14,811 nucleotides of DNA from a virus. Taxonomy: Duplodnaviria; Heunggongvirae; Uroviricota; Caudoviricetes. Within the stretch, counting starts at the first letter, position 1. The number at the start of each line of letters is the position of its first letter. Below the pieces are notes generated by a model. The model made no database searches. It saw only the letters and a list, made by a program, of their open reading frames with translations, and was not told where the DNA came from. The DNA is taken from positions 1 to 14,811 of the IMG/VR virus record IMGVR_UViG_2534681835_000032. One strand, given 5' to 3'. Shown in pieces: positions 1 through 14,225 of the stretch. The position numbers were made by a program, and so were the translations under genes.

Positions 1-156
1 TTACTCCTCAGGTTCGTAAGCTGTGAAGACAGTGACCTCCGTCTGGCCGGTTCGGATTCGTACCTCGCAGAGGTCTTTCCTCGTTACCAGTGCCGTCACA
101 ATGACGGTTAAACAGATGACGATCAGGGCGATTAGCATCGCCTTTTGCTGCTTCAT
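1..156 (-). CDS. hokD: Hok/Gef-family type I toxin (HokD/RelF-like), 51 aa
   Basis: ATG at 156 gives MKQQKAMLIALIVICLTVIVTALVTRKDLCEVRIRTGQTEVTVFTAYEPEE: single TM helix plus the conserved RKxLCE[VI]R and F[TM]AYE motifs of Hok proteins. SD AAGGAG 9 nt upstream. The ORF track shows an in-frame upstream ATG at 213 as an alternative start. Confidence 0.8.
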   Translation of the reverse strand: MKQQKAMLIALIVICLTVIVTALVTRKDLCEVRIRTGQTEVTVFTAYEPEE

Positions 157-371
157 AGCCTGCTTCTCCTTGCCTTTCGGCGCGTAAGAGGCTAACCTAC
201 ATGTGCAAGTCATAGATATGGCCTCAGATTAATGTTAAGCGTCTTGCCGGACGCGTAATGTTAACTGGGGCTTTTCTCTATCTGCCGTTGGTGTTCATGC
301 CCGAGGCAGATAGCCTCAAGCACCCGCAGCAATTCTACTTAACTCTCGCTTTACCGCAAACCGTTTTTACC

Positions 372-393
372 CGATATGGGAATTCCCATATCG
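372..393. promoter_or_regulatory. Perfect 22-bp palindrome CGATATGGGAATTCCCATATCG (candidate protein-binding site or RNA hairpin)
   Basis: Perfect dyad symmetry read directly from the sequence; lies between a small ORF and the hok leader; no flanking U-run on either strand, so not a canonical intrinsic terminator. Confidence 0.3.
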
Positions 394-401
394 TAATGAA
401 T

Positions 402-506
402 TCAGTTCCCTAGTCGATCCATCAAAAACACAACCAGGCAGTAAACGCCCACAACAGCAATAACAGCCAGCGCACCTTCCATTGCCAGTGAAATATCATC
501 CGACAT
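402..506 (-). CDS. Small hydrophobic protein, 34 aa (MSDDISLAMEGALAVIAVVGVYCLVVFLMDRLGN)
   Basis: ORF below the track size cut-off; strong SD AAGGAGG 4-5 nt upstream of ATG at 506; predicted single TM segment; same strand as the neighbouring phage genes. Confidence 0.35.
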   Translation of the reverse strand: MSDDISLAMEGALAVIAVVGVYCLVVFLMDRLGN

Positions 507-541
507 ATTCCCTCCTTTGGTGTTAATCCCGGCGAACGTTT

Positions 542-625
542 TTACCCCCACCGACAAATAACATATACTAAAAAAGCGATAGCCATAGCAACGCCTGTAA
601 TTGCAAATGCTTCAGGCCAGTTCAT
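542..625 (-). CDS. Small hydrophobic protein, 27 aa (MNWPEAFAITGVAMAIAFLVYVICRWG)
   Basis: ATG at 625 overlaps the stop of the upstream DUF551 gene (ATGA overlap, suggesting translational coupling); hydrophobic core; not in the ORF track because of size. Confidence 0.3.
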   Translation of the reverse strand: MNWPEAFAITGVAMAIAFLVYVICRWG

Positions 626-1170
626 TGGCGCACCTCCTGCGGCGGTTCTGGTAGCGGCATCCAGTCGGTTACATTGCGGCTCTGTGTTTCGAAAAATTCA
701 TCACCATCACGGACTACATCAAAAAACTCACCGTCTCGATATTGCGCATAAAGAACGAATGCGCCATCACATAAAATAATTACGTGCTGACCGTCATCCG
801 GCATTCGCTCACTACAGCTTATCCAACCATCCAGAGTTATCGGAGATCTGGTTGACGTTTCCGAGATTTCCCGAAAATTGTTGGTTGACGAATTCTTATT
901 TTCCCGAAAGTTTCCGGCCTGAAGCATGGCGACGCGGCAGGCGTTCCAGCCATCAGCATATGTTTTAGTTACACCGTCGAGATGGCAGGTAAGCAAATCC
1001 ATTTCATCAGGCACTACCATTGCTATCGGCTCTGCTTCCAGTGATGCCAGCGCGATACGAAACACATTAGCCAGCAGGCTGTCTGAAGACTTGTTATCGT
1101 GCGCCGAGTCGCTCAGGAAGCCTGTGATGTATGATTTAATCTCCGCGCGTTCTCTGGTAATAGTGCTCAT
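622..1170 (-). CDS. Phage protein with C-terminal DUF551 domain, 182 aa
   Basis: C-terminal region (DGWISCSERMPDDGQHVIILCDGAFVLYAQYRDGEFF...VTDWMPLPEPP) matches the DUF551 pattern common in lambdoid phages; SD AAGGA 8 nt upstream of ATG at 1170. Confidence 0.75.
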   Translation of the reverse strand: MSTITRERAEIKSYITGFLSDSAHDNKSSDSLLANVFRIALASLEAEPIAMVVPDEMDLLTCHLDGVTKTYADGWNACRVAMLQAGNFRENKNSSTNNFREISETSTRSPITLDGWISCSERMPDDGQHVIILCDGAFVLYAQYRDGEFFDVVRDGDEFFETQSRNVTDWMPLPEPPQEVRQ

Positions 1171-12215: not shown

Positions 12216-12271
12216 TTCAGCCTGGCGGTGTAATGCACCGCCAACGCGAGACAGTTTTTATGACAAAAATT

Positions 12272-12466
12272 ATGAGATATGACGATGTTAAACCATGTCC
12301 GTTTTGTGGTTGTCCATCTGTTACGGTGAAAGCAATTTCAGGATATTACCGGGCAAAATGCAACGGATGCGAATCCCGAACTGGCTATGGTGGAAGTGAA
12401 AAAGAAGCACTCGAAAGATGGAATAAACGAACTACTGGAAATAATAATGGAGGTGTTCATGTATAA
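12272..12466 (+). CDS. ralR: RalR / Lar (restriction alleviation; type I toxin of the RalR-RalA pair), 64 aa
   Basis: MRYDDVKPCPFCGCPSVTVKAISGYYRAKCNGCESRTGYGGSEKEALERWNKRTTGNNNGGVHV, recognised as RalR; in-frame upstream ATGs at 12260 and 12233 are alternative starts; no clear SD. Confidence 0.75.
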   Translation: MRYDDVKPCPFCGCPSVTVKAISGYYRAKCNGCESRTGYGGSEKEALERWNKRTTGNNNGGVHV

Positions 12467-12647
12467 AATAACTGCCACTATTGAAAAAGAAGGTGGCACT
12501 CCTACTAACTGGACAAGATATTCAAAATCTAAATTAACGAAATCAGAATGCGAAAAAATGCTCTCAGGGAAAAAAGAAGCAGGCGTGTCCAGAGAGCAGA
12601 AAGTAAAGCTGATAAATTTTAATTGCGAGAAACTTCTGTCCTCGTGA
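12459..12647 (+). CDS. ydaC: Small protein YdaC-like, 62 aa
   Basis: MYKITATIEKEGGTPTNWTRYSKSKLTKSECEKMLSGKKEAGVSREQKVKLINFNCEKLLSS; SD GGAGG 6 nt upstream of ATG 12459; overlaps the ralR stop by 8 nt. Confidence 0.65.
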   Translation: MYKITATIEKEGGTPTNWTRYSKSKLTKSECEKMLSGKKEAGVSREQKVKLINFNCEKLLSS

Positions 12648-12753
12648 GTTGCATTATATACAAATTAGAACTTCATAGCTGATTATTAAAAATCAACCAC
12701 ACCCGCCAGTATTCTGTATATTTACTGGCGGTCATATCGTAAGAGGTATGGCA

Positions 12754-13035
12754 ATGAATCTTGTGACACTCAAAACGTGGGGAAAACTCAGATATCCGGA
12801 TAACCCACCATCAATATCAACGCTGAGACGATGGGCAAGGAATGGAAACATTTATCCTGCACCTGAACTACACGGGAGGAGTTACAGGGTGGTTCCGGAA
12901 GCTTTCTATATCAACCCCAATAAGGTTGATACCGATATAACACACCATCAGCCTAATGGGCGACAAGGGAGAGACAGTCCGTTACTGGAGAAGTTAAAAC
13001 ATGCAGCGGAAAAAATACGATCCCAATTTGCCTAA
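12754..13035 (+). CDS. xis: Excisionase (lambda Xis-like), about 93 aa
   Basis: N-terminus LVTLKTWGKLRYPDNPPSISTLRRWARNGNIYPAPELHGRSYRV resembles the lambda Xis winged helix; SD AAGAGG 7 nt before ATG 12754 (ATG 12748 is an alternative); overlaps int as in lambda. Confidence 0.7.
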   Translation: MNLVTLKTWGKLRYPDNPPSISTLRRWARNGNIYPAPELHGRSYRVVPEAFYINPNKVDTDITHHQPNGRQGRDSPLLEKLKHAAEKIRSQFA

Positions 13036-14077
13036 AAACTTAACATATCGAAGGAGGGACAAAGCATATTACTGGCGCAACCCTCTGACGAAAGAAGAAT
13101 TTACACTAGGTAAAATTTCAAGAAGAGATGCAATCGCGCAGGCAATTGAAGCAAATCACTATATATACAAAAACTACTCTACTGCTGCCTTAATTGAAAA
13201 ACTTAAAGGGTTCGACTCATTTACTATGGCAGACTGGATTGAACGTTACAAAACGATTCTTATAAGGAGAAAAGTGTCCAGAAATACTTATAAAATTCGG
13301 GTAAATCAACTGGAGACAATAAAAGAAAAATTGGGAGAGATTTTACTGACAGAAATAACCACTCGCCATATTGCCGAGTTTCTTGATTTGTGGATTGAAG
13401 GAGGGAAAAACACAATGGCAGGATCAATGCGTTCTGTGTTGTCTGATATGTTTCGTGAGGCCATTGTTGAAGGACGTATATCTCAAAATCCAGTAACGCC
13501 AACAAGAGCACCGAAAATAGTAGTTACAAGAGAACGACTGAAACTAAAGACATACAACTGCATCAGGGAGGCAGCAGATCAACTTCCGGCATGGTTCCCA
13601 TTAGCTATGGATTTAGCCCTTGTAACAGGACAACGTCGCGAAGACATAACGAATATGCGGTTTAGTGATATTTATGATGATCGTCTCCACATCAGGCAAA
13701 TTAAGACAGGAATGATGATTGCTATCCCCCTGTCACTCAGCCTTCCTGTCGCTGGTCTACGGCTTGGTACAGTAGTTGAACAGTGCCGCCTGGTAAGCCG
13801 GGGAGATTATCTAATCAGTGCCGGGATTAGAAAAAACAGCCCTGACGGCAGCATTCACCCGGATGGCCTGACAAAAAAATTTGTCGCAGCCAGAAAATTA
13901 ACAGGTATCCAGTTCAGTGAAAACCCACCAACTTTTCACGAGATCAGAAGCCTGGCTGGACGATTGTACAAAGAAACATATGGAGAAGAATTTGCTCAGC
14001 GTCTACTTGGCCACACATCGGAGAAGACAACAAAAATGTATCTTGATGAGAGAGAAAAAACGTACTTACTGCTCTGA
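13001..14077 (+). CDS. int: Lambda-type tyrosine integrase, 358 aa
   Basis: Collinear with lambda Int (N-terminal arm-binding domain [28 protein letters not shown]; catalytic region [34 protein letters not shown] with the presumed catalytic Tyr). Confidence 0.9.
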
Positions 14078-14225
14078 TTTTAACGTAAATGGATTGTTAA
14101 ATGTATTTTGGTTGTGATATAACCAAAAAAGACCGGAATACAGAAATTCGAGTAAATTTCGGGGAATTTCGGGGAGACGCTTGCAACTGATTGATTTTAA
14201 ATACAATTAAAAAAAGACCGAGTAC
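14078..14225. other. attL-like junction: phage P-prime arm with arm-type repeats, and putative core overlapping the 3-prime end of sdsR
   Basis: Region between the int stop and the first recognisable host sequence; contains tandem AATTTCGGGG repeats and two near-copies of AAAAAAGACCG(A/G)(A/G)TAC. Exact crossover point not determinable from one junction. Confidence 0.45.
14144..14174 (+). repeat. Tandem direct repeats AAATTCGAGT / AAATTTCGGGG / AATTTCGGGG (candidate arm-type Int-binding sites)
   Basis: Three adjacent 10-11 bp repeats (two perfect) 67-97 bp downstream of the int stop, in the position of lambda P-prime arm sites. Confidence 0.35.

Follow-up and report, generated by a model that had tools for sequence, protein, structure and literature searches.

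The 14,811-nucleotide stretch of DNA analysed here (the window; IMG/VR record IMGVR_UViG_2534681835_000032) is 100% identical to positions 2266974-2281784, on the reverse strand, of NZ_CP077465.1 (Escherichia coli O111:H8 strain 8E). We have assigned positions 1-14234 of the window, with a probability of about 0.88, to the early half of a mosaic lambdoid prophage of ~57 kb, in which a Rac-type early-left operon is found together with exchanged cassettes, a lambda-family integrase (Int) located at sdsR, and an inserted C4/isrK-Rha unit. The enclosing prophage extends from sdsR to pphA and contains late genes. Its yebY-side end carries int, xis, and the early genes; its pphA-side end, ~57 kb off, carries tail genes, an nleC pseudogene, and IS1, and the head, tail, and lysis gene set between the two ends is complete. 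Within the early half, the order of the modules is nin-like region, replication, immunity, early-left operon, and xis-int. The annotation of the Prokaryotic Genome Annotation Pipeline (PGAP) places 25 genes in the window, and they are already present in RefSeq.

A preliminary description of this DNA had presented it as a Rac-type prophage that carries a lambda-type integrase at another chromosomal site, and had proposed its recombination breakpoints as places to look for novel cargo. This view was partly supported. The description was mostly right, also on modular exchange, but the unusualness or recent exchange that it implied was not supported, and some details have to be corrected, i.e., the presence of racR, the identity of ydaS and ydaU, the position of sieB, and the depth of the lambda-type relationship. 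Within the pool of lambdoid mosaics, this element is unexceptional and already known.

Module map of the early region against K-12 Rac

The whole-region alignment proposed in the preliminary description was run with blastn and blastp against the Rac locus of K-12 MG1655 in matching orientation, and the module boundaries and identity drops were mapped. As had been claimed, the gene order is that of K-12 Rac from the DUF1627/ydaW position to rcbA (=ydaC). Blocks sharing DNA with Rac were found at positions 2667-4212 (DUF1627, ydaV, and the 3' part of the ydaU-position gene; 78.7% identity), 4719-5145 (ydaT; 93%), 6167-6479 (ydaG, ydaF; 94%), 6526-6906 (KilS region; 89%), 7814-8673 (kilR, ydaE, racC, and the recE start; 97.7%), and 9408-12697 (remaining recE, recT, ralR, rcbA; 93.3%). 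No DNA homology to Rac was detected by blastn at 1-2666, 4213-4718, 5146-6166, 6480-6525, 6907-7813, 8674-9407, and from 12698 onward. Modular mosaicism is thus supported, because Rac blocks of 93-98% identity alternate with non-homologous blocks, which include the immunity cassette, the initiator N-terminus, the RecE N-terminus, and xis-int-att. The units exchanged with respect to Rac would be the immunity cassette, the DNA-binding N-terminal half of the initiator, the N-terminal third of RecE, and the integration module, with sieB having been lost.

At the level of sequence, the Rac-type recombination and kil operon has been confirmed, i.e., kilR-ydaE-racC-recE-recT-ralR-rcbA together with the RalA and KilS small RNAs (sRNAs). 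Its protein-coding genes lie on the plus strand, and the percentages that follow are blastp identities to the K-12 proteins. The operon region starts with ydaG and ydaF (6203-6500; 93% and 96%), and kilR and ydaE (7824-8215; 96% and 98%) follow the Rha insertion. The racC gene (8289-8565) is frameshifted: PGAP flags it as a pseudogene, and the block containing it, 97.7% identical to Rac, shows a 1-nt length difference, so that the intact racC of the preliminary description does not hold. The recE gene (8666-11413) encodes a 915-aa protein (NF007259, 1606 bits; also found by blastn and blastp) that is 74% identical overall to K-12 RecE, and its segment 8674-9407, which encodes the N-terminal third, has no DNA homology to K-12 recE. 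The recT gene (11406-12215; 98%) is followed by the toxin gene ralR and by rcbA, a DUF1187 gene (12272-12647; 98% each), opposite to which lies the antitoxin sRNA RalA (12465-12643, minus strand; RF02694, 219 bits, gathering score 170). Frameshifts were also observed in hexR and in a nearby capsid fusion gene, and rsmF has an internal stop (L001 44757-45625; L005 27388-28827 and 7368-9346); some of these frameshifted or interrupted genes, racC among them, may be assembly errors and not real pseudogenes.

The other features by which Rac is recognized were not found in this prophage: there is no IntR/XisR module in ttcA, no RacR with YdaS/YdaT immunity, and no sieB between ydaF and kilR. The two elements are alike in the gene order mentioned above, in the KilS and RalA sRNAs, and in the divergent repressor/cro layout. 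They differ in the integrase/excisionase family member and in the site (sdsR here, ttcA in Rac), in the repressor, the distant YdaS, the initiator N-terminal half, and the RecE N-terminal third, and unlike K-12 Rac, this prophage lacks sieB, has the C4/isrK-Rha unit as an extra, and retains the nin-like region.

The gap in the blastn alignment at 5146-6166 corresponds to a swapped immunity cassette that comprises a cro-like gene, an OR-like region, a repressor gene, a terminator (5987-6008), and an OL/pL-like region. The repressor gene (5503-5967, plus strand) encodes a 154-aa protein that contains an XRE helix-turn-helix (HTH) domain (Pfam HTH_3) and a DicA-like C-terminus and has no S24 peptidase domain. 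The DicA match involves the last 50 residues (aa 105-154), and its 35.6 bits fall far short of the 101 bits of the model cutoff. No similarity to RacR was detectable by direct protein comparison (E=4.5), and the racR assignment of the preliminary description has to be abandoned. The cro-position gene (5123-5398, minus strand) encodes a 91-aa HTH protein that passes the Pfam YdaS_toxin cutoff (40.6 bits) but shares just 42% identity over 50 aa with YdaS; the name ydaS stands for a distant family member and not for a close homologue. The adjoining ydaT gene (4717-5139, minus strand) encodes a CII-like protein (phrog_163) that is 95% identical to K-12 YdaT. The repressor gene is flanked by inverted 42-nt blocks (5423-5464 vs 6099-6140) that are 71% complementary and contain TGATCA motifs, the second AT-rich region of the cassette being an inverted 42-nt partial copy of the divergent intergenic region. 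In the swapped cassette, these blocks are candidates for the OR and OL operators, and, as judged from its sequence, 5146-6166 is laid out like a lambdoid imm cassette with its OR and OL, the immunity not being of the Rac type.

Two features of this region recall the Qin prophage: the repressor C-terminus matches the DicA model, and a DicF-like sRNA precedes a cell-division inhibitor gene (KilS-kilR here, dicB in Qin). The KilS homologue (6649-6745, plus strand), which ends in an intrinsic terminator, is ~94% identical to K-12 kilS. The likeness to Qin has its limits, the DicA match being 50 residues long and the match of KilS to the DicF model (42.8 bits) lying under its gathering score of 48. 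In other genomes, a Rha unit of the kind described below adjoins dicB.

The replication module has a mixed character. The DnaC-like helicase loader of the YdaV type (3098-3844, minus strand; NF009043, 509 bits; DnaC model, 297 bits) is 83% identical to YdaV. The initiator encoded next to it (3851-4639, minus strand), which matches the replication initiation protein phrog_2509 over its full length, is chimeric in blastp comparison: its C-terminal 124 aa are homologous to YdaU (80%), and only to this extent does the ydaU assignment of the preliminary description stand, whereas its N-terminal 138 aa are unrelated. It is presumably through its YdaU-like C-terminus that the initiator works with the conserved YdaV loader. 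Three 20-bp palindromes, GTAACGC-N4-6-GCGTTAC, spaced ~200 bp apart (4249-4272, 4456-4479, and 4648-4671), are located inside the segment for the initiator N-terminal half and immediately before it; they are candidate origin or operator sites paired with the swapped N-terminal domain. The ydaW position (2360-3076, minus strand) is occupied by a gene for a DUF1627 protein that is 57% identical to the K-12 DUF1627 fragment.

The remaining end of the window is a nin-like region on the minus strand. At 402-2327, annotation and PHROG matches identify small genes encoding a 34-aa ORF product, DUF551 and DUF4014 proteins, two hypothetical proteins, and a 93-aa HTH protein; they have no counterpart in K-12 Rac, where the region is deleted (no blastn match). 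At its edge, PGAP annotates the 51-aa type I toxin gene hokD (1-156, minus strand), and Rfam detects a sok-family match at the hok leader (151-325, minus strand; RF01794, 108.4 bits, gathering score 59). A Hok-family ORF, the hok toxin that the preliminary description had noted in this region, is therefore present with an adjacent sok/leader RNA, although the matches to NCBIfam Hok models, one of them of 46.7 bits, stay under the cutoffs. A PADLOC scan of ten window proteins, including those of the nin-like genes, gave no match to defence genes.

Integration module and attachment site at sdsR/ryeA

Comparison of the empty site in K-12 (attB, CAGATAAAAAGAGACCGAACACGATTCCTGTATTCGGTCC) with the two prophage ends (attL, CAGATAAAAAGAGACCGAACACGATTCCTGTTTTCGTCAAC; attR, ...AAAAAAAGACCGAGTACGATTCCTGTATTCGGTCC) revealed an 11-bp common core, ACGATTCCTGT, which is present in the three sites with imperfect homology on either flank. 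The attL sequence equals attB on its left side, and attR equals attB on its right side. The attR core lies at 14224-14234, in the sdsR terminator, and coincides almost exactly with the end coordinate of the preliminary description, 14225. The junction at sdsR/yebY, instead of the K-12 Rac site, was borne out: the core is in the sdsR terminator, Rac resides in ttcA, and the chromosomal gene yebY (14470-14811, minus strand), which by annotation adjoins the prophage, is found in all of the 5,426 complete E. coli genomes searched.

The crossover falls in the 3' end of sdsR (ryeB; 14209-14308, minus strand), whose terminator is rebuilt from phage DNA, as in other elements that target this gene. The reconstituted sRNA scores 113.1 bits with RF00111 (114.4 in K-12), and the opposite gene ryeA (sraC; 14205-14349, plus strand), whose 5' end and upstream region are phage-derived, scores 176.1 bits with RF00101 (175.1 in K-12). 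Folding indicates that the lysogen keeps the terminator hairpin of sdsR, in which there is one internal mismatch, and has a longer U tract. Because the Rfam scores of SdsR and RyeA match those of K-12 and the hairpin survives, the phage has a mimic of the sdsR 3' end. According to this proposal, Int and Xis would recombine attP, with core ACGATTCCTGT and flanks that mimic the sdsR terminator, with the sdsR 3' end, and integration would rebuild a working sdsR terminator and put phage DNA upstream of the antisense gene ryeA.

The ryeA/ryeB locus has been described as a phage attachment hot spot, with att sites within the last 23 bp of ryeB, in the account of Balbontin 2008 given in PMC7380047; the same work appears in the reference list of PMC3333887. 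In the passage of PMC7380047 that cites Balbontin 2008, insertion of PhiW104 at ryeB in Salmonella lowered the expression of ryeA and raised that of ryeB. As far as these passages describe them, PhiW104 and other ryeB inserts share with our prophage an att site in the 3'-terminal ~23 bp of sdsR, internal to ryeA, which leaves sdsR intact and replaces the region upstream of ryeA. This prophage differs from PhiW104, with which it is compared by description, in residing in E. coli and in its Rac-type early region. The nearest Salmonella record found, ZC-S1_prp, carries an int that is 73% identical.

The P' arm contains tandem AATTTCGGGGA repeats (14155-14176, plus strand), which k-mer analysis pointed out as candidate arm-type Int sites, a related AATTTTCGGGAA being present in the attL arm. 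The same arm contains AAAAAAGACCGGAATACAG at 14125-14143, in which part of the sdsR-terminator/core sequence is repeated in inverted orientation ~90 bp inside the phage arm; it may serve Int as a core-type site or be left over from an earlier att. A sigma-70 scan of positions 12600-14480 did not find a phage-borne ryeA promoter; a TTGCAA-15-TACAAT sequence at 14181-14207 was noticed by eye and is not claimed as a promoter.

The integration module (12698-14234, plus strand) comprises a palindrome at 12693-12721, xis, int, and the P' arm up to the core, and has no homology to Rac. The int gene (13001-14077, plus strand) encodes a 358-aa tyrosine integrase of the lambda family that shares 39% identity with lambda Int over 347 aa. 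Its arm-binding, core-binding, and catalytic domains are detected by Pfam (Arm-DNA-bind_1, 29.7 bits with a cutoff of 22; Phage_int_M, 41.3; Phage_integrase, 62.1), its best PDB matches are structures of full-length lambda Int (E=2e-72), and residues R212, K235, H313, R316, H338, and Y347 align with the catalytic residues R212, K235, H308, R311, H333, and Y342 of lambda. The enzyme is predicted to be active. Direct protein comparison showed no similarity to IntR. The xis gene (12754-13035, plus strand) encodes a 93-aa excisionase (Pfam Exc, 52 bits) that is 29% identical to lambda Xis. As in lambda, the Int alignment runs end to end with its three domains and six catalytic residues, xis overlaps the start of int, and int lies at the prophage end by att; the differences are the lack of DNA similarity, the core ACGATTCCTGT, the location of attB in the sdsR terminator and not between gal and bio, and the Xis protein itself. 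Since the xis-int-att DNA matches just 2 of 50,697 phage records, neither of which is lambda, the term lambda-type applies at the protein-family level only. The preliminary description was thus correct in calling the integrase lambda-like, in contrast to Rac, but kinship with lambda does not extend to the DNA.

The breakpoint that had been placed at 12650-12750 is real and sharp, with the blastn homology to Rac ending at 12697/12698. The novel cargo suspected there did not appear, because the stretch between rcbA and xis (12648-12753) is a 106-bp intergenic spacer with one palindrome. This palindrome has perfect 9-bp stems, CCGCCAGTA-N11-TACTGGCGG, a few bases from 12697/12698 and 33 nt before xis, with no U tract. 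It superficially resembles a LexA box, but the CTG-N10-CAG spacing does not fit; it is a possible operator.

The inserted C4/isrK-Rha unit

Between ydaF and kilR, the prophage differs from K-12 Rac by two separate events. In the first, ~46 bp (6480-6525) stand in place of ~555 bp of Rac (L004 6021-6574), sieB included, as determined by blastn and pairwise alignment. In the second, ~380 bp further on, a module of ~905 bp that is absent from K-12 Rac (6907-7812, plus strand) has been inserted after the KilS region and ahead of the kilR ribosome-binding site; the alignment junctions lie between ...AAAGTTCA(C/T)TT and the kilR Shine-Dalgarno sequence GGAGATAATTATG. The preliminary description had put a Rha gene in the position of sieB: a Rha gene is present and sieB is missing, but the Rha gene is a separate insertion beyond the sieB scar. 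The novel cargo expected at 6500-7220 turned out to be the KilS/DicF-like sRNA and the C4/isrK-Rha unit, which is already known. The unit has blastn matches in 217 phage records, many Stx2a phages and ST64B among them, and the labels "C4 antisense RNA" and "isrK" already appear in the annotation of at least one record. A sub-threshold STnc100 match (40.6 bits) was also observed at 6752-6898, between ydaF and the Rha insertion, in a region conserved with K-12 Rac.

The unit begins with a promoter-like TTGAAA-17-TATAGT sequence (6945-6973, plus strand; 10 of 12 consensus matches) that ends 7 nt before an isrK-like leader RNA (6980-7056, plus strand; RF01394, 68.6 bits, gathering score 50). This leader contains the target sites b1 (7005-7011), which folds into a hairpin loop, and a1 (7020-7028), which falls in a single-stranded stretch, followed by an intrinsic terminator (7034-7056). 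Then comes a C4-type antisense RNA (7081-7168, plus strand; RF01695, 78.1 bits, gathering score 45) that covers the full Rfam model and has a minimum free energy z-score of -3.4. Its loops are a' (CTCTAGTGA, 7125-7133) and b' (GTGCAAA, 7141-7147), and downstream of it lie the targets b2 (7173-7179) and a2 (7205-7213), on the plus strand. The a' loop is complementary over 9 nt to TCACTAGAG at both a1 and a2, and the b' loop is complementary over 7 nt to TTTGCAC at both b1 and b2. Site a2 overlaps an AGAGG Shine-Dalgarno sequence, 9 nt before an ATG at 7223. A C4-fold RNA is therefore present with loop-complementary target pairs upstream and downstream, one of them at a ribosome-binding site, and the layout a1 b1 - c4(a' b') - b2 a2 is of the P1 immI type; the match to the c4-a1b1 model is sub-threshold (18.8 bits).

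The pairing between loops and targets is supported by co-variation. One scan of IMG/VR for the conserved C4 core gave 119 loci, i.e., 87 unique instances with 44 loop alleles. In these homologues, the complement of each a' loop is found at a fixed distance of ~53-56 nt downstream, with a mean longest exact complement of 8.3 nt, against 2.7 nt when the loops are swapped; for the upstream complement the means are 7.0 nt and 2.7 nt, the latter for loops swapped between alleles, and the b' complement is found at +22. Close relatives show joint changes at the three sites, for example b1/b'/b2 = TTAGCAC/GTGCTAA/TTAGCAC. Thus, at least 44 a'/b' alleles exist among IMG/VR prophages, each with matching a1/b1 and a2/b2 at fixed offsets. 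The genes downstream of the IMG/VR C4 loci fall into size classes of ~75, 120, 180, and 240 aa.

PGAP annotates the Rha gene as a 282-aa coding sequence (CDS) at 6929-7777 (WP_000935592.1), and the isrK and C4 matches fall inside this ORF. We have considered whether it is a single Ash-Rha fusion, with the RNA matches being incidental to the coding sequence. The ORF is open, its ATG at 6929 has a Shine-Dalgarno-like AGGTG 7 nt before it, Pfam Phage_ASH matches aa 14-108 with 57 bits, in 47 of 64 homologues no stop codon closes the frame upstream of ATG 7223 across the RNA genes, and the phrog_995 profile extends ~100 positions further at the N-terminus than a 184-aa protein starting at 7223. 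The substitution pattern speaks against it. In a codon-position test, all 15 diverged homologues were saturated and uninformative, and close relatives were informative: substitutions at codon positions 1/2/3 were 10/13/14 and 16/14/22 upstream of 7223, with no third-position excess, and 33/17/55 and 30/14/55 in the Rha ORF, with a strong one. Moreover, the upstream variation is concentrated in three mutually complementary sets of sites that change jointly, an intrinsic terminator and a promoter-like site lie within the putative N-terminal coding part, the ATG follows a2 by 9-10 nt in nearly all homologues, and a processed RNA of ~80 nt has been seen experimentally from the equivalent region of Gifsy-1 (PMC4825925). 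We consider the fusion unlikely. Because the substitutions upstream lack codon periodicity and the Rha ORF shows it clearly, the real Rha product is a probable 184-aa protein starting at 7223 (7223-7777, plus strand), and the Phage_ASH match probably reflects the translated RNA leader. A translated RNA leader may often be what underlies an "Ash family" annotation. The 184-aa protein, in whose CDS the codon-position substitution bias sets in at 7223, belongs to the Rha family of putative regulators or antirepressors (Pfam Phage_pRha; phrog_995), and its matches to anti-repressor PHROGs run through the common Rha domain.

The C4/isrK-Rha unit would be a self-contained element of 0.9 kb, with its own promoter, isrK-like leader, terminator, C4 RNA, b2/a2 sites, and Rha. 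By analogy with P1 immI and with isrK-orf45-anrP of Gifsy-1, the C4 RNA would mask the Rha ribosome-binding site, and a short leader RNA carrying a1 and b1 would modulate this masking. P1/P7 immI (c4-icd-ant), P4 CI/seqA-seqC, and Gifsy-1 isrK-orf45(STnc1160)-anrP share with this unit the succession of promoter, upstream targets, C4-type RNA, downstream targets over a ribosome-binding site, and regulator. The isrK terminator with a read-through layout is shared with Gifsy-1, where read-through of the terminator and the processed ~80-nt RNA were compared to P4 CI/seqA (PMC4825925). The unit differs from P1 immI, P4, and Gifsy-1 in that no icd-like ORF lies between C4 and Rha and the regulated protein is a 184-aa Rha-domain protein, and in that it is placed inside a lambdoid early-left operon, directly before kilR, and not in a separate immunity region. 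The interval from the end of the Rha CDS to kilR (7778-7823) showed no terminator, and transcription from the Rha-module promoter could read into kilR-recET. A search for LexA boxes (CTGT-N8-ACAG, with at most one mismatch), aimed at the Rha promoter and xis, gave 4 matches, all in recE/recT, with 4.5 expected by chance.

Population frequency and meaning of the mosaic

We have counted the complete E. coli genomes, of the 5,426, that cover at least 80% of each fragment. The fragment across the rcbA/xis junction (12350-13050) and the int-att-yebY fragment were each found in 228 genomes, the stretch from ydaG through Rha to kilR in 61, the immunity cassette allele in 75, and the whole 14.8-kb window in 3. 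Junction carriers are ~4% of complete E. coli genomes and ~12% of the 1,922 genomes with ralR-rcbA, and the junction-bearing copies are all annotated by PGAP. The equal counts of both fragments suggest that, in complete E. coli genomes, this integrase never occurs without linkage to Rac-type ralR-rcbA. The ralR-rcbA pair is present in 1,694 further genomes, and among the copies listed the homology ends at 12697/12698, at the identical nucleotide. For comparison, 1,002 genomes contain at least 80% of the left 11.8 kb of K-12 Rac. Most Rac-like prophages are in ttcA, and that of CFT073 lies elsewhere (PMC4632033).

These counts bear on the reading implied by the preliminary description, that of a rare, recent recombinant in which a Rac prophage gained a foreign integrase and moved its site, leaving breakpoints that mark a fresh exchange and maybe contain novel cargo. 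The combination of cassette alleles is indeed uncommon, as the count for the whole window indicates. However, the junctions are singly common, the break at the identical nucleotide in all other listed ralR-rcbA carriers points to an old, fixed module boundary, and the sequence between modules is a 106-bp spacer or consists of known RNA/Rha elements. A rare recombinant is accordingly very unlikely, and what was found is a common, already annotated Rac variant with the same integrase and site, the very outcome that the preliminary description had named as its refutation. As for a chromosomal island, or an assembly artefact that joined unrelated phage fragments by yebY, the frameshifted or truncated genes nearby (racC, hexR, rsmF, late genes) could be cited, but the chance is negligible given that complete genomes obtained independently by many laboratories show this arrangement, that a matching attL with the same core lies ~57 kb off by pphA with head, tail, and lysis genes between, and that attB is uninterrupted in K-12.

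Some points weigh against reading the window as the early half of such a prophage with a self-contained Rha unit. The promoter call is a consensus match, from a scan that gave 6 sites with 4.6 expected by chance; the open frame through the RNA genes and the AGGTG before ATG 6929 have been mentioned above. The candidate arm-type Int sites amount to three short repeats (AATTTCGGGGA twice and one in attL). With no LexA box nearby, SOS control of xis or of the Rha promoter is rejected. Finally, the prophage is probably defective as a phage, because a satellite interrupts the terminase large-subunit gene and the annotation marks several late genes as pseudogenes.

The element that splits the terminase large-subunit gene into two partial CDSs is of ~10 kb (NZ_CP077465.1 ~2292.3-2303.7 kb; L001 5084-7491, L005 1-5667). 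It encodes a 413-aa integrase, an HTH protein, a BRO-N protein, an Icd-like protein, a primase, a single-strand DNA-binding protein, and a ClpP-protease/capsid fusion, and it resembles the helper-embedded type of phage-inducible chromosomal island described in PMC10111431. At the pphA end of the prophage, a truncated gene for the type III effector NleC is followed by IS1 (L005 24102-25613), a typical cargo of prophages of enterohaemorrhagic E. coli (EHEC); in the literature searched, prophages at yebY/pphA had no description specific to EHEC. Among deposited phage genomes, PP818812.1 carries the same integrase (96.7%) together with recET, kil, a DicA-type repressor, ydaT, and hok. It is the sole phage record with this integrase and is named "Actinobacillus phage vB_Apl-pPE4", yet it is E. 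coli-like, its Rac-type recET, kil, ydaT, and hok being ~91% identical, and its host assignment looks doubtful.

As a discovery, the mosaic has little weight: it is a textbook case of lambdoid prophage modular mosaicism, and RefSeq and Rfam already contain its sequence, its genes, and most of its RNAs. The term Rac-like applies to the recombination and kil operon, and not to the immunity or the integration. By analogy with PhiW104 in Salmonella, lysogeny at sdsR may rewire the SdsR/RyeA toxin-antitoxin sRNA pair in ~4% of E. coli, which is a lesser variant of the regulatory proposal that follows. In that proposal, which we regard as doubtful, the unit would be no mere passive moron, and the C4 RNA would constitute a second, allele-specific immunity layer that gates the trans-acting putative antirepressor Rha and, through translational polarity, the Kil/RecET operon; it was considered because the unit, without its own downstream terminator, sits directly before kilR-ydaE-racC-recET and because the repressor has no LexA-like cleavage domain.

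For annotation, the first 98 codons of the 282-aa Rha CDS (6929-7222) are probably a translated RNA regulatory leader, and the same would extend to the Pfam Phage_ASH matches. The allele series of C4 loops and targets provides a clean natural co-variation data set for studying secondary immunity or the cross-talk between EHEC prophages and, if the proposed C4 gating were true, prophage cross-induction in polylysogenic EHEC would depend on matching C4 alleles.

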